The notes under the pieces were generated by a model. It was not told where the DNA came from. It was given only the letters and a program-made list of their open reading frames with translations, and made no database searches. From contig VMGB01000003.1 of NCBI GenBank assembly GCA_007376295.1, positions 7,106 to 71,105 of the forward strand: a stretch of 64,000 nucleotides of DNA, given 5' to 3'. The position numbers were made by a program, and so were the translations under genes. Positions 49,422 to 59,570 of the stretch are shown here, piece by piece. The DNA is from Parcubacteria group bacterium Gr01-1014_13. Lineage in GTDB: Bacteria > Patescibacteriota > Patescibacteriia > Magasanikbacterales > GWA2-37-8. The first letter of the stretch is position 1. Every line of letters begins with the position of its first letter.

Positions 49422-49565
49422 ATATTACGATGGTTAACTTAATATCTTACAGTTCATAAAATATACCCTATTTTTCACAAAAAAGCAAGGGGTTGGGCTT
49501 AAATGCCGGTTATAAAAATATCCCGCCCCACATAACTGTGAGACGGGACGAAACGAACCGATAGA

Positions 49566-50183
49566 TCAAGCGCCCACTGGCTTCTCGCTGATGAAACCGA
49601 ACAAGGAGTCATTTCTACAGTTAATGCCATGCCGGACCGAACGGTAGTCCAGGTGTCGATAGTCTGGATAACCGTAGAGATGGAACACATTGCCGTGCCG
49701 TACGGAGCCGAGCGCCACGATTGGCGCTTGCCGTTGTTCCTCAGGATACTGGATGCCAATAGCGTGGATGTGCTTGGGCATGATGGGCTTCTTATCACCA
49801 TTCCCCTTGGCCCACGCGAGTATCTCATCGTAAGATGGACTCCGGTCAAACTGATACAAATCAACACTCATCGACTCAGCCAAGTCAGCCTCGTCGTCGA
49901 CAAACAGTGTGATAATACGTTTGTCGCAGGTATCATACTTGCCAAGCTTGATGGCGTGCTTGTGCGACCTCACATTGTTTGATTTGAGATCAAGTGTCTT
50001 GACTAGGGTACCGACTATGGGTGGTTCCGGTACCGGCCGTCTAGGCAAGGGGGGCTCCTTTGGCTCTACGATGATACCGCACTCACCGCTGAGTACTGCT
50101 CGCGCAACCTTATCGCCACCAATAATATTTATAAGCGCCTCGATCTGGCCGAGTTTCCAATCGCCATATTTCGCCATCTGCGT
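49566..50183 (-). CDS. High-GC hypothetical protein (about 205 aa)
   Basis: Clean ORF with AGGAG RBS. GC is visibly above the flanks. No motif recognised. Confidence 0.4.
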   Translation of the reverse strand, partial: TQMAKYGDWKLGQIEALINIIGGDKVARAVLSGECGIIVEPKEPPLPRRPVPEPPIVGTLVKTLDLKSNNVRSHKHAIKLGKYDTCDKRIITLFVDDEADLAESMSVDLYQFDRSPSYDEILAWAKGNGDKKPIMPKHIHAIGIQYPEEQRQAPIVALGSVRHGNVFHLYGYPDYRHLDYRSVRHGINCRNDSLFGFISEKPVGA

Positions 50184-50310
50184 TCTCCTTCTGGACTGAA
50201 AGCCCAAAAAGCATTTTGCCCCTGCCCGGGACCTAGGTCTTCTCTCATGAGAAGAACGTATACATATACTCGTTATTTTAAATTCTGTCAAGAAACACAC
50301 CAAAAACAAA

Positions 50311-50348
50311 ACATCCCCAGACATTATGTCTAAGGGATGTTTTTTATA
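50311..50348 (-). terminator. rpsA terminator hairpin + T-run
   Basis: CATCCCCAGACAT..ATGTCTAAGGGATG with T-runs. Confidence 0.55.
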
Positions 50349-50354
50349 CTGTTT

Positions 50355-51557: not shown

Positions 51558-51747
51558 ACAACAAAAAAATTTTCCTTATCCTCTCCCGAATCATAGTCGG
51601 GCGAAGGTTCTCTCCTCTAAATTGGGAGAAATTAAATATTTTATTTGTCAGCTCCTTAAATTCCGCCGAGGCGGATCCCGATTTAATCGGGAAAATTTAC
51701 TGGGTTCAGTATACTATATATTTTACACGGTGTCAATGGTAGGTTAA

Positions 51748-51780
51748 AAAAACTGCCCCGAAAACGGAGGCAGCGGCTAA
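51748..51780 (-). terminator. Hairpin CTGCCTCCG..CGGGGCAG + T7 (minus strand)
   Basis: Read directly. Confidence 0.5.
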
Positions 51781-51786
51781 AAACCA

Positions 51787-52053
51787 CTATTTTAACTTCT
51801 CTCTCAACTTATCAATCTTGTCATTTATACGAAACCGTTCTTCTTCCAAAAAATGTCTATGCTCCATAGTTAGATACCGCCTTAAGTGCGGTGGTAAATT
51901 TAGATACTCACTTACCTCGCGCTCGTCTTGCTCTAATTTTTCTAACCGGCAGTGTCTCGCCCATCTAATTACTACTGGCGTGAAAAGTAATACCATAGCA
52001 AAAGTAGGGGCTATGACAAAGAAAAAAACTTGCAGACCAATGAATTTTCTCAT
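51787..52053 (-). CDS. Small single-TM protein (88 aa), first member of the paralog array
   Basis: ORF with AAGGAGG RBS and its own promoter. Confidence 0.4.
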   Translation of the reverse strand: MRKFIGLQVFFFVIAPTFAMVLLFTPVVIRWARHCRLEKLEQDEREVSEYLNLPPHLRRYLTMEHRHFLEEERFRINDKIDKLREKLK

Positions 52054-52080
52054 TGCTTCCTCCTTCTTTGTCTAGACTTT

Positions 52081-52110
52081 ATTATTACCAGACCAAGACC
52101 AAAAAGTCAA
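52081..52110 (-). promoter_or_regulatory. Promoter TTGACT-17-TAATAA(T) on the minus strand. The same module recurs upstream of each array gene.
   Basis: Read directly. Analogous copies are at about 53253-53282 and 52745-52775. Confidence 0.55.
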
Positions 52111-52117
52111 TATAATG

Positions 52118-52150
52118 AATAAAAAAACTGTCCCGGGGTCGGGACAGCGA
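52118..52150 (-). terminator. Perfect 8-bp hairpin CTGTCCCG-GGGT-CGGGACAG + A7/T7. Repeated at 53296-53316 and 53688-53708.
   Basis: Read directly. Confidence 0.6.
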
Positions 52151-52177
52151 AGACAAAATTTATTTTTTGACACTCTT

Positions 52178-52714
52178 TCACTTACCATTAGAGTGGACCA
52201 CGATCGCTCTGACAAGCTTGGATTCACCTCTGCGGTAACGCCCTATCCGAACTAACCATATGCCATACATGATTGCCGGAGAAATGAGCATACCTCCGCC
52301 AGCAAACGAGAGAAACCAATCATATCCATTTCGTGGATACGAAACGAATAAAATGAGCATTAAATTCCAAGCAACAAAAGCGCCGAAAGACAGAATAGCA
52401 AGAACCTTCGTGCAAGGTTGCTCTGGAAGTTTGTTGGCTTTCATTGATTGAAAATGGACCACTGCCTTTGGCAACTTCACTTTTGGTAATTGTGATTGGC
52501 GACGCGTCTTGATTTTATTAACTAGTAACGCAACAGACAAGCCGAGAGAGGCCAAGACGCAACCAGCAAGAAAAAGTAGCATTATCCAAGTGGTATCATC
52601 ATAGAAACCACAGAATTTTACCGCTAGAAGAAAAAGAACTAAAAACATTAGCGCTGAGGCGAGATAACCGTATAACAGATTCTTCATATCATACATCACG
52701 TCTCCGGTAATCAT
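52178..52714 (-). CDS. Small membrane protein of the paralog family: an internal duplication of [2 TM + basic KLPKAVVHF-like motif]
   Basis: RRQSQLPKVKLPKAVVHF after TM2. RRGESKLVRAIVVHS after TM4. Confidence 0.45.
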   Translation of the reverse strand: MITGDVMYDMKNLLYGYLASALMFLVLFLLAVKFCGFYDDTTWIMLLFLAGCVLASLGLSVALLVNKIKTRRQSQLPKVKLPKAVVHFQSMKANKLPEQPCTKVLAILSFGAFVAWNLMLILFVSYPRNGYDWFLSFAGGGMLISPAIMYGIWLVRIGRYRRGESKLVRAIVVHSNGK

Positions 52715-52834
52715 GATTTTTCCCCTTGTTGACTATTTGATTGTTCTTATATCACAACCGATACAAAAAGTCAATATTAAAAATCCCGCACCCCTCGAAA
52801 GGAATACGGGACAAAGCACTGGTGTTCGCGCTAA

Positions 52835-53236
52835 TCAATCGGCAACATTCGCTGCTTCCATATACTGCTTGAACAGCTTATACAGTTCCTTGACACAAAA
52901 GATCAACGAGCTGCTAACTACGAAACCACCCAACGCCCAACCTAGTGACATGTTATAATCTCGAAAACCTTCTACCCACCAGGATGGTAGTAGGAGCAAA
53001 CTTCCAACAGTGGCCGTCAAAATAACTGCCAATGAGAGAAAATACCTGAGAGAAAGTGGCTTGTAAGCGCACAGTACTCTCGGAATGTCTAACATACACC
53101 AAAACGTACCTAATACGACTCCTTCGAAAAATGAAGCAAACCATCTCTCCGTAACTCCTGAAATTAAGAGAAGTAAAGAAAATAGGACTGCAAACATGAC
53201 ACCAACGACAACAGACGAAATAATGAGCTTTTTCAT
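52835..53236 (-). CDS. Small 4-TM membrane protein
   Basis: ORF with AGGAGGAAA RBS and the shared promoter cassette. Confidence 0.4.
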   Translation of the reverse strand: MKKLIISSVVVGVMFAVLFSLLLLISGVTERWFASFFEGVVLGTFWCMLDIPRVLCAYKPLSLRYFLSLAVILTATVGSLLLLPSWWVEGFRDYNMSLGWALGGFVVSSSLIFCVKELYKLFKQYMEAANVAD

Positions 53237-53339
53237 GGGTTTCCTCCTGCATACTTATTATCACATAAAAGATGAAAAGTCAATATAAAAATAAAGCTGC
53301 CCCGAGGTCGGGACAGCGATGACGAAATGTCTTACGAAA

Positions 53340-53612
53340 CTACGGACGAAAATGGACCACTGCCTTTGGCAACTTCACTTTTGACAAGTGTAGTTGGCGA
53401 CGCATCTGAATTTTAACTACCAACAATTCAATGAGCACCCGCGAGGTTGCCGTGACGTAGATAATTAAAGAAAGAAGCATGATGGCAGTAAAGCCGTCAA
53501 TGAGGCCAAAAATTCTGATAGAAAAGGGACAACCAATTAATAACAATAGCGTAGGAACACCAAAACCGAATAAAAGGCACTTCGCATCATACCGCCTATT
53601 TTGCAGAGTCAT
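53340..53612 (-). CDS. Half-length paralog (2 TM + RRQLHLSKVKLPKAVVHF, ending right at the motif). Possibly truncated.
   Basis: About 70 bp of its DNA is near-identical to 52449-52520. Confidence 0.35.
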   Translation of the reverse strand: MTLQNRRYDAKCLLFGFGVPTLLLLIGCPFSIRIFGLIDGFTAIMLLSLIIYVTATSRVLIELLVVKIQMRRQLHLSKVKLPKAVVHFRP

Positions 53613-53728
53613 GGGGTTTCTCCTGACTGAATTGTCTAATTGTTTTTATATCACTCCAGAAGCCAAATGTCAAGCTTAAAAAAGCTGCCCCAGGGTTGGG
53701 ACAGCGATGATGTTCGTCAAATGTTGAG

Positions 53729-54151
53729 CTAATCAAGTTTGTGGCGTTTGAGTTCCTCGACGGTACCCTTCCAGCCCAAAAACTTTTTAATTCCTTGCAA
53801 ATTAACTGATACTATTTTAGTTGTCGGCGAAGCTGGCGGAACATATTTCTTGAGCTTATCCACTCCCAACACTTTGAGATGATTGTGTGGAAAACGCGCG
53901 ACTGCCTTTGGCAGTTTCCTAGACTGTCGACGACGATGCACCGCCGCCCAAATTAAGGATGACGACAGATAAGTCGCGCATGATAGCAATAAAATGAACG
54001 CGTATGAGAACACAAGATAATGGAAGCAAACGAGAACATTAGAAGCCGTGCCTATAGGGAAAAAATAGAAAGAGAGCTCCCCGGCTAAGTAGCTACCGAC
54101 TATTGCGCTGGGTACAATACGCCAGCTGAGCAGAGTATCCAAATATCTCAT
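53729..54151 (-). CDS. Paralog-family membrane protein (RRRQSRKLPKAVARF)
   Basis: Shared motif after TM helices. Confidence 0.4.
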   Translation of the reverse strand: MRYLDTLLSWRIVPSAIVGSYLAGELSFYFFPIGTASNVLVCFHYLVFSYAFILLLSCATYLSSSLIWAAVHRRRQSRKLPKAVARFPHNHLKVLGVDKLKKYVPPASPTTKIVSVNLQGIKKFLGWKGTVEELKRHKLD

Positions 54152-54186
54152 TGAGTTCCTCCTTGTTGAACTTGTTGATCGCGAGT

Positions 54187-54480
54187 TTACCTTGCGCGAT
54201 TTGGCGCAAGATTTTTAATCAGCCGGCGATGGTGCCTGGCGTCCTGAACCAAGTCCAAAGCGCTAATCAAAGGAAACCATAGAATGACGAATACGCCAAA
54301 TGCTACACTAAGAAACCAGAGGCCGAGCAAGATTTTAGAAAGCACAACGAAACCGCCGCTGCTTAGGTCGTTACTCTCGCAAACGAAAGTAGAGAAAAGG
54401 AAAGCAATGTCGCTTCCCAAGAGAAAATAGGCAAAAAAACATAATGCCATGCCCAACAAACCAAACATGATATCCTTCAT
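54187..54480 (-). CDS. Small 3-TM membrane protein with a basic tail
   Basis: ORF only. Confidence 0.35.
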   Translation of the reverse strand: MKDIMFGLLGMALCFFAYFLLGSDIAFLFSTFVCESNDLSSGGFVVLSKILLGLWFLSVAFGVFVILWFPLISALDLVQDARHHRRLIKNLAPNRAR

Positions 54481-54603
54481 TGTTTTCTCCTCTATACGTT
54501 ATATATCACGCTGAAGAAGAAAGGTCAACCATGCACCAGAGCAAGCTCAATGCATGGTAAATGCAAAAAAATCCCGCCTTCCGAAGAAGAACGGGACGAA
54601 CCA

Positions 54604-55182
54604 TTATTTTCTCTTTACCATCCGGCACTCATGATGCAAACGGCACATCATTTCAATATCCAGAGGCGTAACGACAGTCGGTAGCTTATATGACATTACT
54701 GAACCTGTGCCTTCGGGCACATCATTATCATCCCGACCGAGCACATGCCCAAACTCGTGCGCCATTCTACGAGGCGTAATCGTAAACGAATTGTCAAACA
54801 CAATCTCGGGCGATGAGTATGATGAGGATGATGCCCCATAAGCATAACAGGCGAAGCTGCCCTCGCCACAGAAACCTGCCTCAATCTTTAAATAGATAAC
54901 ATCCTCGTTTACTCGATTCGAAGGCAGATTGTTCTTTGAGTAAAGGATAACTGCCCGAGGATGATTGGCCTTGCCGAAATAATCGAACCATTGCTTGACA
55001 CCATCATTGATCTGCTGGACCCGGGAAGCGCGGCAAGCTTCGTAGCCTGTGGGATCTTGCTCACAGCCAGACCAAAAACTTTGCTCTGTCACCATATAGA
55101 TAGGATGGCGCAAATCAAAATATGGAACCCCACCACAACTGCAAATTGCAACAAGCGCAATAGCGATGAAAAAAGAACGCAT
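54604..55182 (-). CDS. Lipoprotein metzincin, snapalysin (M7)-like zinc metalloprotease
   Basis: Lipobox AICSC. HEFGHVLGRDD (HExxHxxGxxD) and Met-turn SVMSY. Confidence 0.6.
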   Translation of the reverse strand: MRSFFIAIALVAICSCGGVPYFDLRHPIYMVTEQSFWSGCEQDPTGYEACRASRVQQINDGVKQWFDYFGKANHPRAVILYSKNNLPSNRVNEDVIYLKIEAGFCGEGSFACYAYGASSSSYSSPEIVFDNSFTITPRRMAHEFGHVLGRDDNDVPEGTGSVMSYKLPTVVTPLDIEMMCRLHHECRMVKRK

Positions 55183-55200
55183 GAAACACCTCCTCTACTT

Positions 55201-55809
55201 TCATTTTACCATCCGGCATTCAAAATGCAAACGACACATTATTTCGATATCCAAAGGCAAAACATTGGTCGGAGTCTTATATGACATGACCGAGCCCGTA
55301 CCTTCCGGAACATCATTATCATCTCTACCAAGAGCGTGTCCAAACTCATGCGCCATGATACGAGGTGTGATCCGCGACGAACCATCAAACACAATCTCTG
55401 GTATCTTGTGTCTGTAGCAGGCCACATAGCTCCCTCCCAGCTTTTCCTTGCCGCATTCACCCCCAGGATCAATACCCAGATGGATGACTCTGTTTTTCGG
55501 ATTTGACGGCAGTTCTTCCTCAGAAAAAAAGATCGCTACCTCGGGACGATCGGCCTTATCAAAATAATCAAACCACTGCTGGACACCCTCGTTAATCTGC
55601 TTGACCCGCAACGCACGACAAATGTCATCGCCTGCCGGATCTTTGTCACAACCCAACCACAAGCTTTTGTCTGCCAACATATAGACTGGGTGGCGCAAAT
55701 CAAGATATAGAGCTGAGGTTCTAAAAACTGAAGGGCGCAAATCAGGGTGCTGAGTACTACTACAGCCACAAACCAAGAATAGCCCGATGGCGATTAAAAA
55801 AGAACGCAT
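55201..55809 (-). CDS. Paralogous lipoprotein snapalysin-like metzincin
   Basis: Lipobox LVCGC. HEFGHALGRDD + SVMSY. The 3' ends of the two genes are near-identical at DNA level. Confidence 0.6.
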   Translation of the reverse strand: MRSFLIAIGLFLVCGCSSTQHPDLRPSVFRTSALYLDLRHPVYMLADKSLWLGCDKDPAGDDICRALRVKQINEGVQQWFDYFDKADRPEVAIFFSEEELPSNPKNRVIHLGIDPGGECGKEKLGGSYVACYRHKIPEIVFDGSSRITPRIMAHEFGHALGRDDNDVPEGTGSVMSYKTPTNVLPLDIEIMCRLHFECRMVK

Positions 55810-56039: not shown

Positions 56040-59000
56040 ATGCCTATAAAAAGAGTCTCTAAAGGAAGGATAATCCCAGAAAAAAAACCAGTAAAATCTT
56101 TAAAACCCAAAGTTAAAAAGATTTCCGCGCCTGCTCCTAAACCAACTCCCGCCCCCGCTAAAGTTATGGCAAACAAACCAAAAGCGAAAGTTTCCGACAA
56201 AGCTGATGCCAGCTATAGCGCCAAAAATATTACAATTTTAGAAGGTCTGGAAGCCGTACGCCGCCGTCCGGGCATGTATATTGGCTCCACTGGTCCGGTA
56301 GGTCTTCATCACCTAATTTGGGAAGTAGTAGACAACTCTATCGACGAAGCGATGGCTGGTTTTTGTACGCAAATTAACATCACTCTTTTGCCAGATCATT
56401 ATATAGAAGTAAAAGACAATGGTCGTGGTATCCCTGTAGATATTCATCCGCAAACCGGTGTCAGCGCTTTAGAAGTTGTACTTACCAAACTGCACGCTGG
56501 TGGTAAATTTGATGCTGGCAGTTATAAAGTTTCTGGTGGTTTGCACGGCGTGGGTGTTTCGGTAGTCAACGCTTTATCCACACACGTTAAAGCCGAAGTG
56601 CATCGCGACGGCAAAGTTTGGTTGCAAGAATATAAAAATGGCGGTAATCCGGTAAAAAAAGTTCATCAAATTGGTACTACCAAAGACCGCGGTACAATAA
56701 TTACTTTCCGAGCTGACGACACTATTTTTGAAACCATTGATTACGAATGGAAAACTATTATCGATCACGTTCGCCAACAAGTCTATCTGTCCAAAGGTAT
56801 TCGTATTGCTATAACCGATAAAAGAACTGGCGCGGAAAAAGATGCGGACAAAACTGCTTTGCCATTCCCCAACCCAACTTATCAATTTTACTTTGAAGGC
56901 GGTATCGCTTCATATGTTCGCCACCTAAACCAAAACAAAGAAGTCAAAAACGAAAATGTTTTTTATGTAGAAAAGGTACACGAAGATGTAAAAGTAGAAA
57001 TCGCTTTACAATACAGCGATGAATTTACTGAATCTTTGTTTGCTTTTACTAATAATATTTACAATCCTGAAGGCGGCACGCATGTGGCTGGTTTTCGTAC
57101 AGCCCTGACCCGAAGTTTAAACAGCTATGCGCGCAACAAAAATATTTTAAAAGAAAAAGACAGCAACCTGACTGGTGAAGACGTACGGGAAGGTTTAAAC
57201 TGTATAATTTCTGTCAAAGTTACTGAACCGCAATTTGAAGGTCAAACCAAAGCCAAATTAGGAAACACCGAAGTAAAAACTGCGGTTGAAGCCGTGATGA
57301 ATGATGAATTTTTGGTCTTCCTGGAAGAACACCCGAAGGATGCCGAAGGCATCGTTGGTAAATGTTTGCTCGCTGCCCGCGCTCGCAATGCGGCTAAAAT
57401 CGCCCGCGATACTATTTTGCGTAAAGGTGCTTTGGAAGGATTTACTCTGCCTGGAAAATTAGCAGACTGCAGCAGCCGACGCGCCGAAGAATCTGAATTG
57501 TTCATTGTGGAGGGAGATAGTGCGGGTGGATGTTGGGATGGAAATACACTAGTTGCGCTTGCTGATGGCAGAGCCTTGAGTTTTAAAGAAATTATAAAAG
57601 AACAATCTGAAGGCAAAGAACATTTCTGTTATACCATAAGAAATGATGGAAAAATTGGCTTAGAAAGAATTATTAATCCGCGCCGAACAAAAACAAACGC
57701 TACGGTTATTAAAATCACTCTTGATAATGGAGAAATTTTAACTTGCACACCGGACCATCTTTTTATGACACGAGATGGAAGTTATAAACAAGCCCAACTT
57801 TTGACTGCGAAAGACTCTTTAATGCCACTATACAAAAAAATCTCGAATAAAAAAGAAAGGGGCATCACCATTGACGGGTATGAAATGGTGTGGGATCCAA
57901 AATCTGATTCCTGGCTATTTACGCACATGCTAGCTGACTGGTACAACAGATGGAAAGGTGTTTATAAAACTACAGATGGCGATCACCGCCATCACATGGA
58001 CTTCAACAAACGTAACAACAACCCTTCAAACTTGCTTAGGATCTCAAAAGAATCCCATTTGGAATTACATAGAAAACATGTAAGCAAAACATTGCATAGA
58101 CCGGATGTTATTGAAAAATGCAGAAAAATAAAACAGGATCCACAATTTCGAACAGCAATGAGCGCGCGCATGAAGCAGCCGGAAACAGCGGCTTTGCTTT
58201 CAAAAAATGCAAAAAAACAATGGCAAAATACAGAATACAAGAATTACATGACCAAAAAATTCTTAGAATTCTATAATAACAACGAAGAATACCGCCAAAA
58301 AAATAACGAGTTGCTGAATAAAGCCCAACAGAAGTATTGGAGCGATGAAGTAAACAAAATCAATCAAGCCGAGAGGGTTACAAAATTCTTTGAGGAGCAT
58401 CCTTATAGAAAGGAATGGTTAAGAGAACTAGCCGCGGCGCAATGGAATGACTCAGACTTAAAACAATGGCGTTCCGAAAAAACAAAGGAGCAATGGACGC
58501 TGGAATTCCGCACCAAACGACGTGAAGCATATAACCAGACTTACCTCCAGAACAGTTTGGCGTTTGCCAAAAAAATCTTGGAGCAGGGTCAGGATTTATT
58601 TGTGACATATAATCTGACCCGAAAAAATCTGCCGAAACGCGACAATAATATAGTCAAACTAGAAACTCTGCTTGACCGATTTTTTGCCGGAGATAAAAAT
58701 CGTCTACTTGAAGCCACAACTAACTTCAATCATAAAATAACAAAGATTGAAAAGGTAAAAGAAAAAATTGATGTATATGACATTGAAGTCCCAGGAACTC
58801 ACAATTTTGCGCTTGCTTCCGGAATATTCGTGCATAATAGTGCCAAGCAAGGACGTGACCGTGAACACCAAGCCATCTTGCCTCTGCGCGGTAAAGTTCT
58901 TAATGTTGAACGCGCTCGTTTAGATAAAATTCTCACCAACAACGAATTAAAATCACTCATCATTGCTATGGGCACAAATATTGGCGAAGCGCTTGATATT

Positions 59001-59570
59001 TCCAAACTTCGTTATCATCGCGTAATCATCATGACCGATGCTGATGTCGATGGCGCGCATATCCGTACTCTTCTGCTTACATTTTTCTATCGTTACTACC
59101 CAACGCTAATTACCGGTGGACATATTTTGATTGCCCAGCCGCCGCTATATAGTTTGAAGTATGGCAAGAACATGAAGTACGCTTATAACGACGAAGAAAA
59201 AGAAAAAATACTTCTTGAAATTAAAAATACATCTTCTGCCAATTCCTCTGCTAAAGCTGCGGCTAAAAAAGCAATGGTAGGAGCGTCATCTCCAGAAGAA
59301 GCTGGAGAAACTGCTGAAGGCGAAGTTCAAGGATTAGAAATAAATGGCATTAAAGTAAATATTCAGCGCTATAAAGGTTTGGGTGAAATGAACCCTGAAC
59401 AACTTTGGGAAACTACCATGAACCCAAAAAATCGCATGATGAAAAGAGTGACTATTGAAGACGCTGAACTGGCCAATGAAGTTTTTGAAATCCTAATGGG
59501 TGATGAAGTAGCTCCACGCAAAAAATTCATCCAAACTCATGCCAAATCAGTAAGTAATTTGGATATTTAA
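56040..59570 (+). CDS. gyrB: DNA gyrase subunit B interrupted by an in-frame intein, with a K/P-rich N-terminal extension
   Basis: GHKL ATPase motifs. Toprim EGDSAGG...SAKQGRDR is split by a 436-aa insert. Confidence 0.9.
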   Translation: MPIKRVSKGRIIPEKKPVKSLKPKVKKISAPAPKPTPAPAKVMANKPKAKVSDKADASYSAKNITILEGLEAVRRRPGMYIGSTGPVGLHHLIWEVVDNSIDEAMAGFCTQINITLLPDHYIEVKDNGRGIPVDIHPQTGVSALEVVLTKLHAGGKFDAGSYKVSGGLHGVGVSVVNALSTHVKAEVHRDGKVWLQEYKNGGNPVKKVHQIGTTKDRGTIITFRADDTIFETIDYEWKTIIDHVRQQVYLSKGIRIAITDKRTGAEKDADKTALPFPNPTYQFYFEGGIASYVRHLNQNKEVKNENVFYVEKVHEDVKVEIALQYSDEFTESLFAFTNNIYNPEGGTHVAGFRTALTRSLNSYARNKNILKEKDSNLTGEDVREGLNCIISVKVTEPQFEGQTKAKLGNTEVKTAVEAVMNDEFLVFLEEHPKDAEGIVGKCLLAARARNAAKIARDTILRKGALEGFTLPGKLADCSSRRAEESELFIVEGDSAGGCWDGNTLVALADGRALSFKEIIKEQSEGKEHFCYTIRNDGKIGLERIINPRRTKTNATVIKITLDNGEILTCTPDHLFMTRDGSYKQAQLLTAKDSLMPLYKKISNKKERGITIDGYEMVWDPKSDSWLFTHMLADWYNRWKGVYKTTDGDHRHHMDFNKRNNNPSNLLRISKESHLELHRKHVSKTLHRPDVIEKCRKIKQDPQFRTAMSARMKQPETAALLSKNAKKQWQNTEYKNYMTKKFLEFYNNNEEYRQKNNELLNKAQQKYWSDEVNKINQAERVTKFFEEHPYRKEWLRELAAAQWNDSDLKQWRSEKTKEQWTLEFRTKRREAYNQTYLQNSLAFAKKILEQGQDLFVTYNLTRKNLPKRDNNIVKLETLLDRFFAGDKNRLLEATTNFNHKITKIEKVKEKIDVYDIEVPGTHNFALASGIFVHNSAKQGRDREHQAILPLRGKVLNVERARLDKILTNNELKSLIIAMGTNIGEALDISKLRYHRVIIMTDADVDGAHIRTLLLTFFYRYYPTLITGGHILIAQPPLYSLKYGKNMKYAYNDEEKEKILLEIKNTSSANSSAKAAAKKAMVGASSPEEAGETAEGEVQGLEINGIKVNIQRYKGLGEMNPEQLWETTMNPKNRMMKRVTIEDAELANEVFEILMGDEVAPRKKFIQTHAKSVSNLDI
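57531..58838 (+). mobile_element. GyrB intein (436 aa) with an HNH homing-endonuclease domain
   Basis: Starts with Cys (CWDGNTLVALADG). Ends ...GIFVHN followed by Ser(+1). Internal DHRHHMDFNKRNNNPSNLL...HLELH HNH motif. Confidence 0.75.

Follow-up and report, generated by a model that had tools for sequence, protein, structure and literature searches.

The 64,000-nucleotide stretch of DNA analysed here (the window) is part of a 182,724-bp contig in the groundwater metagenome-assembled genome (MAG) Parcubacteria group bacterium Gr01-1014_13. It contains six minus-strand open reading frames (ORFs), G1 to G6, of 97, 140, 90, 133, 178 and 88 amino acids (aa), respectively, which encode small predicted membrane proteins and lie between two lipoprotein metzincin genes, M1 and M2, and rpsA (Table 1). 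The array is genuine and orderly. Its best explanation is that complete transcription units carrying a lineage-specific family of small membrane proteins were duplicated locally, with partial homogenisation of the copies; with the inferred function included, this reading is given a probability of roughly 0.6. The gene order on the minus strand is M1, M2, G1, G2, G3, G4, G5, G6, rpsA, a 252-aa ORF and ftsH, and gyrB is located upstream of M1/M2 on the opposite strand. An initial annotation of this DNA had placed the six small ORFs correctly, next to what it called two secreted metzincins; both are indeed lipoprotein metzincins.

Evidence for the copying of whole units comes from G3 and G5. The two units align collinearly, starting at the -35 box and continuing into the next promoter, with identities of 0.70-0.76 in the promoter, 0.5-0.6 in the part encoding the transmembrane (TM) segments, 0.8-1.0 in a shared motif, RRQ..KLPKAV, 0.83-0.9 in the terminator and 0.7-0.77 in the following promoter. 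The G5 unit contains ~290 nt more than the G3 unit, inserted between motif and terminator, and this extra segment is the G5b unit, the second half of a fused protein whose first half is G5a. Copying of a segment that runs from promoter through ORF to terminator generates a 'terminator then promoter' junction, which is the intergenic cassette that the initial annotation had described. One such internal junction, a class-B hairpin (see below) plus promoter, is already present in a relative from Hainich, indicating that the process began before the lineages split. The region 53291-53222, comprising the promoter, ribosome-binding site (RBS) and first five codons (15 nt) of G4, is 86% identical to the promoter that follows the metzincin, and to the start of the first gene, in the related locus L022. 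The remainder of the G4 protein displays no significant similarity to any of the relatives' proteins, only the promoter and first 15 nt being kept with L022, and G4 thus probably descends from the ancestral first gene, having diverged and moved to another place in the array.

The motif-coding sequences of G3 and G5 share a tract of 68 nt that is 88% identical, the first 29 nt being invariant, in agreement with the ~70 bp of near-identity reported initially. Between G3 and G5a the synonymous substitution rate (dS) is 0.165 in the 19 motif codons, a small sample, compared with 1.65 in the TM part, a 10-fold difference. The tract thus looks to have been homogenised by putative gene conversion, as the initial annotation had suggested in proposing recent duplication or gene conversion over the motif. 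The K-L-P-K-A codons in G3, G5 and G2 form a palindrome, (C/T)TGCCAAAGGCAG (53359-53373, 52461-52475 and ~53897-53909, respectively), and two of these palindromes were flagged by the terminator scan as weak hairpins followed by GGTCCATTTT.

The signals that delimit the units were identified by consensus matching and folding, hairpin energies being compared with those of 200 shuffles, and the scans for hairpins and cassettes covered the 64-kb window and ~120 kb from relatives. Six sites display the features of Rho-independent terminators, a GC-rich hairpin (-14.8 to -19.7 kcal/mol) followed by a U-run at the 3' end of a gene. Class-B hairpins, of the form GCTGTCCC(G/A)ACC..GGG(G/A)CAG, follow G2, G3 and G5, with a looser variant after G6. 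The three (CTGTCCCGGGGTCGGGACAG, CTGCCCCGAGGTCGGGACAG and CTGCCCCAGGGTTGGGACAG at 52128-52147, 53297-53316 and 53685-53704, respectively) are each succeeded by a T-run and fold at -16.3 to -17.9 kcal/mol; 0/200 shuffles were as stable. Class-A hairpins, GTCCCGT...GCGGGAT, occupy the M2-G1 and G4-G5 junctions. Between copies the stems contain compensating changes, A-U to G-C at the top of the stem and U.G, U-A or C-G at pair 5. Approximately 5-10 nt beyond each T-run is a TTGACx -35 box, then a -10 box and then an AGGAGG-type RBS; all six small genes are preceded by an RBS. The promoter-like sites match the sigma-70-type consensus, comprising a TTGACA-like -35 box, a 16-18-nt spacer and a TATAAT-like -10 box with or without an extended TG. 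The cassette proposed initially, a T-run hairpin succeeded by a TTGACx promoter and RBS, is present between the units, but its hairpin is not uniform, the GCTGYCCC form being restricted to three junctions and the pre-rpsA variant.

These signals are densely packed, 2.9 kb accommodating six strong terminators and five promoters close to consensus, and their concentration is not due to chance. All three matches of the window to TTGACx-N14-16-TGnTAxAxx (-35 box plus extended -10) are in the array, as are 7 of its 25 strong hairpin-plus-T-run sites, which fall within the 2.9 kb that separates M2 from the rpsA promoter. Six of the seven are minus-strand gene-end terminators; the other is a hairpin on the plus strand that overlies the end of G1. 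In the 35-nt gap between G1 and G2 there is no promoter, and the sole hairpin is not followed by a U-run. The array therefore consists of five predicted transcription units, and not of six genes that are each their own unit, as had been proposed. Both hairpin classes are almost confined to this locus in the DNA scanned, and no copy of the class-B pattern was found outside it; the initial annotation had named a genome-wide repetitive extragenic palindromic (REP) element as one of two observations that would overturn its interpretation, and such dispersal was not seen.

The coding sequences support a family that is smaller than the array. Within the six genes, the RRQ..KLPKAV motif is common only to G2, G3, G5a and G5b; a basic motif shared by four proteins had been noted initially. 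The full conserved element is RRQ-x(2-7)-K-L-[PA]-K-A-[VIL]-[AV], which G2-type members extend with (R)FPxNHLxVLGxDKLKxYVPP (also written RFPxNHLxVLGxDKLKKYVPP); tail peptide stretches of these proteins include LPKAVARFPHNHLK and YVPPASPTTK. A permissive expression for the motif matched only this locus in the window and the fetched loci of relatives, bar one antisense chance match. Paralogy was judged from shuffle z-scores of pairwise alignments. G3 and G5a are clear paralogues (z 25), G2 scores ~5 against both G3 and G5a, mainly through the tail, and G1 is a marginal relative (z ~4.3 against each of G5a and G5b). By the same measure, neither G4 nor G6 bears robust similarity to the motif family. 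Of the 'six paralogues' of the initial annotation, therefore, G2, G3 and G5 stand, G1 is borderline and G4 and G6 are not demonstrably related. G3, described initially as a half unit ending exactly at the motif, does terminate just after it (..VVHFRP*). The internal duplication proposed for G5 rests on architecture and the short motif (RRQSQLPKVKLPKAVVHF versus RYRRGESKLVRAIVVHS), the two halves scoring only z 1.8 against each other.

The family is, as far as the searches reach, new, lineage-restricted and very narrow in distribution, being found in a clade of groundwater Parcubacteria. When G5 was used to query a word index of 5.8 billion proteins, it recovered only itself. A profile run exhaustively against 1.84 billion cluster representatives recovered the window's own four proteins and a single outsider, P0075, and a broader 12-sequence profile added only P0076, the G1 orthologue, and P0077. 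Literature searches turned up nothing on this protein family or organism beyond an incidental mention. A metagenome DNA-pattern scan for NDVPxGxxSVMSY found three loci, all already represented, and a profile scan of genome contigs with the metzincin was saturated by the generic HEFGH pattern, returning two distant Magasanikbacteria loci without small TM genes and one irrelevant match.

The comparative loci come from the contigs of the ~70 M2 homologues; a slot of the form gyrB, metzincin(s), small membrane genes and rpsA-ftsH is conserved in five related lineages. In L022 the metzincin gene is succeeded by a class-A terminator and promoter, four overlapping genes (132, 74, 131 and 87 aa), a class-B terminator and the rpsA promoter. 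L002 has the same plan with three small genes, one frameshifted, L003-5/L013 contain two truncated remnants, and L016 encodes a single 231-aa fusion with SRRQQAKKLPKAIVVSFPHNHLRILGMDKIKKYIP between TM segments. The Hainich contigs (L012 and L006) present, in order, M1, M2, a class-A terminator and promoter, the G1 orthologue, a G2-type gene, a class-B hairpin and promoter, and a second G2-type gene. The 35-aa tail is kept in L016, L022, L002, L006 and L015 despite differing codons. The class-A terminator and promoter at the metzincin end, and the class-B terminator before the rpsA promoter, are at orthologous positions in every relative; the hairpins at these ancestral sites fold stably in each, with different loops and compensated stem changes. 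Comparison with relatives shows the putative ancestral state to be metzincin(s), a terminator and promoter, one operon of small membrane genes, a terminator and the rpsA promoter. Distant metzincin homologues at L018, L020/21 and the Magasanikbacteria loci L008/9 lack such small genes, and L024 has small TM and coiled-coil genes without the motif.

Several features of these relatives can be recorded separately. At L002 2119-2535 a gene of the G2/H2 type is split over two frames, representing a frameshift pseudogene or a MAG assembly error. L016 5720-6415 and L024 5875-6258 encode fused or different small proteins in which an internal sequence resembling a lipobox, LNL(T/M)(G/A)C, is accompanied by a TM segment and by a coiled coil whose end reads ..ARLAEL(K/S); the C-terminal half of the L016 protein and the 127-aa protein of L024 are clearly homologous (z 22). 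The gene (87 aa) that closes the L022/L002 operon may have a diverged counterpart in G6, although the relationship is weak (z 5.4 against the L022 protein, 0.2 against that of L002). Homology of G6 to the coiled-coil C-terminus of the L016 fusion or to L024 was considered and rejected, as the architecture is alike but the similarity is not significant.

Orthologues indicate that at least part of the array is maintained. The G1 orthologue in L006/L012 (H1, which is P0076) aligns with z 34, and G2 has orthologues in L022 (131 aa, z 45), P0075 and P0077. The ratio of nonsynonymous to synonymous substitution (dN/dS) is 0.23 for G1/H1, 0.27 for G2/P0075 and 0.35 for G2/P0077, compared with 0.05 for rpsA and ftsH and 0.16-0.24 for the metzincins. 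The values for G1 and G2 indicate that these are real genes and, judged by the same ratios, selection on them is purifying but relaxed. Orthologue and paralogue comparisons together give 0.2-0.5. The strain variant L014 (P0072) is 98.76% identical over 1048 bp, and its 13 single-nucleotide polymorphisms (SNPs) are all within G3/G4, with none in the cassettes. The 10 in G4 amount to five nonsynonymous and four synonymous codon changes, one of them two-base. The initial annotation had called the paralogues diversifying; neither dN/dS nor the strain variant displays any sign of positive diversifying selection. In codon 29 of G3 (window 53526-53528) all three bases differ from L014, CCC Pro to TTT Phe, an unusual multi-nucleotide substitution.

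Hydropathy and the positive-inside rule predict that the motif proteins form N-in/C-in hairpins whose external loops span no more than ~10 residues and whose basic tail is cytoplasmic. The AlphaFold2 model of G2 contains a helical TM hairpin at moderate confidence and an unstructured tail (predicted local distance difference test, pLDDT, <50). In the L016 fusion the motif forms a loop between TM segments and the next loop is acidic, which fits the same orientation. On the predicted topology the conserved tail is cytoplasmic and the metzincins are outside the membrane, so the proteases cannot touch the tail. The conserved element most likely works as a short linear motif that docks to the inner leaflet or to a cytoplasmic partner, a role suggested by the modelled disorder and predicted topology.

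The scheme that follows from these data begins with the ancestral operon shown by the relatives, in which three or four small genes, one of them of G2 type, overlap; it would have been driven by a strong sigma-70-type promoter and flanked by class-A and class-B terminators. Collinearity shows that whole units (promoter, RBS, ORF and terminator) were then duplicated in the lineage of the window; the G5 copy would have gained a second 2-TM-plus-motif unit in frame, and gene conversion would later have homogenised the ~68-nt motif tract of G3 and G5. Each unit would now be transcribed alone from its near-consensus promoter and stopped by its intrinsic terminator. The proteins bearing the motif would insert as N-in/C-in helical hairpins, the TM helices being free to diverge, and the cytoplasmic, probably disordered, juxtamembrane tail or loop, RRQ-x(2-7)-KLPKAV(A/V), would dock a common cytoplasmic partner or the inner leaflet. 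The link of the small genes to the metzincins is positional; as the two are predicted to lie on opposite sides of the membrane and to be transcribed separately, any coupling would go via the TM helices. Our best guess as to function is a dispensable, fast-turnover accessory module of the envelope, and not a system for lysis, phage defence or antigenic variation. The collinear duplicates from -35 box to terminator, the junctions at terminator-promoter boundaries and the tract of 10-fold lower dS are those of ordinary tandem duplication with gene conversion; what differs here is the unusual density of signals in a streamlined genome of the candidate phyla radiation (CPR) and the in-frame fusion of one duplicate, G5.

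Genomes of the CPR encode many small hypothetical membrane proteins whose origin and role are obscure. The locus offers a worked example of how such genes multiply, with units copied, fused and partly homogenised in a fixed slot between essential genes. The finding is one of evolutionary housekeeping, ordinary gene duplication, and not of a new mechanism. The cytoplasmic tail motif of the new family could serve as a handle for pull-down, and the compact near-consensus promoter and terminator modules may serve as reference transcription signals for Parcubacteria.

A number of points weigh against this explanation. The promoter and terminator calls are consensus matches plus folding in a group, the CPR, in which transcription signals are poorly characterised, and the DNA in which further copies of the hairpins and cassettes were checkable is limited to that scanned. 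G4 and G6 have the same flanking modules as the motif genes yet are not demonstrably homologous to them, so that cassettes may spread, or recombine, on their own. The inference of gene conversion rests on 19 codons, and the KLPKA palindrome raises the alternative that selection at the level of DNA or RNA could account for the similarity. Finally, the pseudogene-like states in relatives (the L002 frameshift and the L003-5 truncations) point to genes that are dispensable and possibly in decay.

The initial annotation had likened the array to immunity-protein, holin-like or surface-variation arrays, analogies that failed in all the tests run. An immunity or self-protection array, in which the small proteins guard the cell that makes them against a toxin acting on membranes, or against its own metzincins, and the paralogues are orphan or diversified immunity genes, is unlikely. 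As in orphan or tandem immunity arrays of bacteriocin and polymorphic toxin systems, tandem small TM proteins with fast turnover of gene content between relatives adjoin genes for exported proteins (here proteases), and the arrangement is conserved in the clade. However, Pfam, NCBIfam and PADLOC gave no immunity, toxin or defence family match above noise, and no recognisable toxin or bacteriocin gene is located beside the array, the neighbours being generic metzincin-fold lipoproteins without a toxin-family match. The conserved part of the small proteins is predicted to be cytoplasmic, with tiny external loops, and a conserved terminator divides the metzincins from the small genes, which would be transcribed separately. 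Copy numbers do not co-vary, the ratio of metzincin to small genes being 2:6 in the window, 1:3 in L002, 2:2 (degenerate) in L003-5, 2:1 in L016 and 1:4 in L022, and more distant metzincin homologues occur without small genes. A signature of diversifying selection, as described above, is also lacking.

It is somewhat less probable again that the ORFs are decaying or newly born in a hyper-variable, T-rich spacer before rpsA, with little or no function and with a motif kept by recent duplication or conversion. The extremely narrow taxonomic range, the frameshifted or truncated copies in relatives, the absence of alignable homologues of G4 and G6, and the variable content of the adjoining rpsA-ftsH slot are all consistent with such a history. 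It is difficult to reconcile, however, with dN/dS of 0.2-0.35, at saturated dS, in comparisons of G1 and G2 with their orthologues, with conservation of the 35-aa tail in five relatives despite different codons, or with the strong RBS and promoter that serve every ORF.

A more specific proposal, in the same low range of probability, is that the motif proteins are undescribed, clade-specific membrane-tethered adaptors. Their divergent TM hairpins would pair with different partners, possibly metzincins or host-contact machinery, the shared RRQ..KLPKAVA..RFPxNHLxVLGxDKLKKYVPP motif would recruit one cytoplasmic factor (for example FtsH or a signalling or translation component), and the cassettes would allow independent expression, gain and loss. 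The Tspan15-ADAM10 and iRhom2-ADAM17 complexes, which are among the structural neighbours of M2 (ranks 36 and 48), provide an analogy only, in that small multi-TM proteins are paired with membrane-proximal metzincins. There is no homology, the bacterial proteins have almost no extracellular surface, and the pairing at the present locus is known from gene adjacency.

A holin-like lysis module or prophage remnant, in which the 2-TM proteins act as holins or antiholins for the adjacent hydrolases, is very improbable. The small size, two TM segments, N-in/C-in topology and basic cytoplasmic C-terminus fit the architecture of class II holins and pinholins such as phage 21 S21, although this is common to many unrelated proteins; residues 1, 7 and 10 of G5 are alternative Met starts (the NCBI start, at M7, gives 172 aa), and exported hydrolases are adjacent. 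Against these similarities, there was no significant holin match in PHROG or Pfam, the sole match being that of G1 to a PHROG of unknown function (E 0.004), and no relative of G2 or the metzincin on the viral contigs of IMG/VR. No phage gene lies within 10 kb either side, where gyrB, rpsA and ftsH are in conserved synteny. The array differs from known holins in its 35-aa tail and multiple constitutive-looking copies, and its neighbours combine lipoprotein signals with a metzincin fold and lack any known muralytic fold such as an endolysin would have. Five strong constitutive-looking promoters driving holins would, moreover, be lethal.

Equally remote is the insertion of a mobile or recombinogenic intergenic element (of REP, Correia or integron attC type, or a miniature inverted-repeat transposable element) between unrelated small ORFs, or their capture by it. 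The same terminator-promoter module flanks G4 and G6, which are not demonstrably related ORFs, and small ORFs bounded by a short repeated hairpin module with transcription signals superficially resemble integron arrays. The module is, nevertheless, not dispersed, the hairpin and its variants occurring only at this locus in the 64-kb window and the scanned DNA of relatives, and both hairpin classes are found at orthologous gene ends in relatives, where they are terminators. Homology between units extends through the coding sequence and is not limited to the cassette. Each site is a plain 8-9-bp GC stem with a T-run (8-13-bp stem-loop across sites), devoid of attC R/L boxes, terminal inverted repeats or target-site duplications. 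The R''-L''...L'-R' arrangement of attC, with its GTTRRRY core, is absent, and each repeat has its own promoter, unlike promoterless integron cassettes. No phage gene, integrase, transposase or recombinase was present among the called genes within 10 kb either side of the array.

A phase-variable or antigenically variable surface-protein array resembling Mycoplasma vsp/vlp, suggested by tandem paralogues that each have a repeated 5' regulatory region in a reduced-genome, symbiont-type organism, is scarcely credible given that Tandem Repeats Finder detected nothing in the array, that promoter spacers and coding starts lack simple-sequence or homopolymer tracts and the promoters lack the inverted repeats of invertible elements, that the cassettes are identical in two strain variants, and that the predicted exposed loops are tiny whereas the larger, conserved parts are cytoplasmic, which argues against a surface-variation role.

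Table 1. Features of the array and its borders, in minus-strand order (positions are those of the window).
Feature	Position	Strand	Details
M1	55201..55809	-	Lipoprotein metzincin-like protease, 202 aa; lipobox LVCGC, motif HEFGHALGRDDND, SVMSY Met-turn
M2	54604..55182	-	Lipoprotein metzincin-like protease, 192 aa; ~70 homologues; AlphaFold2 model pLDDT 88
Class-A terminator hairpin after M2	54565..54596	-	TCCCGTTCTTCTTCGGAAGGCGGGA + T7; -14.8 kcal/mol; hairpin and position kept in L002, L006, L016, L022
Promoter-like site for G1-G2	54500..54528	-	TTGACC-N14-TGATATATA (extended -10); homologous post-metzincin promoters in L002, L006, L022
G1	54187..54480	-	97-aa predicted membrane protein (hydropathy); basic tail ARHHRRLIK
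G2	53729..54151	-	140 aa; predicted 2-TM hairpin + tail HRRRQSRKLPKAVARFPHNHLKVLGVDKLKKYVPP; probably co-transcribed with G1
Class-B terminator hairpin	53678..53705	-	GCTGTCCCAACCCTGGGGCAGC + T6; -16.6 kcal/mol, z -4.3; same hairpin after G2-type gene in L015
Promoter-like site for G3	53645..53673	-	TTGACA-N14-TGATATAAA; shares 74% identity with the promoter region of G5 across 53 nt (repeat D7)
G3	53340..53612	-	90 aa; 2 predicted TM + RRQLHLSKVKLPKAVVHFRP
68-nt tract shared by G3 and G5	53348..53415 and partner 52450..52517	-	Repeats D4, D6
Class-B terminator hairpin	53287..53317	-	GCTGTCCCGACCTCGGGGCAGC + T-run; -17.9 kcal/mol, z -5.2
Promoter-like site for G4	53255..53283	-	TTGACT-N17-TAATAA; read from sequence
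G4	52835..53236	-	133-aa predicted membrane protein, 3-4 TM segments, no motif; positional counterpart of first small gene of L022 (132 aa)
Class-A-like terminator hairpin	52779..52812	-	GTCCCGTATTCCTTTCGAGGGGTGCGGGAT + T5; -19.7 kcal/mol, z -4.9
Promoter-like site for G5	52746..52774	-	TTGACT-N14-TGATATAAG; collinear with G3 promoter
G5	52178..52714	-	178 aa, fused units: G5a (2 predicted TM + RRQSQLPKVKLPKAVVHF) and G5b (2 predicted TM + RYRRGESKLVRAIVVHS)
Class-B terminator hairpin	52121..52148	-	GCTGTCCCGACCCCGGGACAGT + T7; -16.3 kcal/mol, z -5.5
Promoter-like site for G6	52081..52110	-	TTGACT-N17/18-TAATAA/AATAAT
G6	51787..52053	-	88 aa; one predicted TM, basic cluster, charged helical tail (hydropathy)
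Class-B variant terminator	51746..51774	-	GCTGCCTCCGTTTTCGGGGCAG + T7; putative ancestral operon-end terminator; orthologous hairpins in L002, L016, L022
rpsA promoter-like site	51708..51736	-	TTGACA-N17-TATACT; 11/12 matches; kept in L002, L016, L022

M1 and M2 are metzincins by their HEXXHXXGXX(H/D) zinc site, Met-turn and modelled fold. Both have lipoprotein signal peptides, and HEFGHxLGRDD and the SVMSY Met-turn are invariant or nearly so. Family matches at the sequence level are weak; in a structure search the M2 model displayed the fold of matrix metalloproteinases (MMPs) and adamalysins, the top Foldseek matches being MMP-11, karilysin, adamalysins and fragilysin (probability 1.0, with TM-scores of only ~0.5). 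The two genes are paralogues (57% identity in the homologue search, dN/dS 0.19) and constitute a tandem duplicate, 54605-55126 versus 55196-55711, with 73-78% DNA identity (self-comparison repeats D1 and D2). Several homologue contigs contain two or three metzincin copies, so this gene, too, tends to be amplified locally. Pfam, PHROGs, PADLOC and NCBIfam provided no meaningful family for the six small proteins, the two metzincins or the 252-aa neighbour, and Rfam over the whole window returned nothing except two tRNAs elsewhere.

The flanking genes also display some variation. The 252-aa ORF (49566-50324), which has no family match and a GC content of ~0.50 compared with 0.40 for the window, is contained in a stretch of ~862 bp (window 49491-50353) that is missing from the relative L003, and is succeeded by a strong class-A-like terminator at 49549-49514. 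As different small ORFs occupy the corresponding position in L022 and L016, the rpsA-ftsH interval is a second variable slot. The ~150-nt 5' leader of rpsA (window 51558-51707, minus strand), which contains the small hairpins CCCGATTAAATCGGG and CCGCCTCGGCGG, is 85-90% identical to those of relatives, approximately as conserved as coding sequence; it has no Rfam family match and could be an S1 autoregulatory leader. An 81-aa plus-strand ORF at 52713-52958 in the public European Nucleotide Archive annotation is antisense to the end of G4 and the G4-G5 intergenic region and is probably spurious. On the other side of the metzincins, gyrB (window 56040-59570, plus strand; 1176 aa) has an intein (PF14890, Intein_splicing), as does the gyrB of L024 (1027 aa), whereas those of L016, L018 and L022 (727-774 aa) are intein-free.

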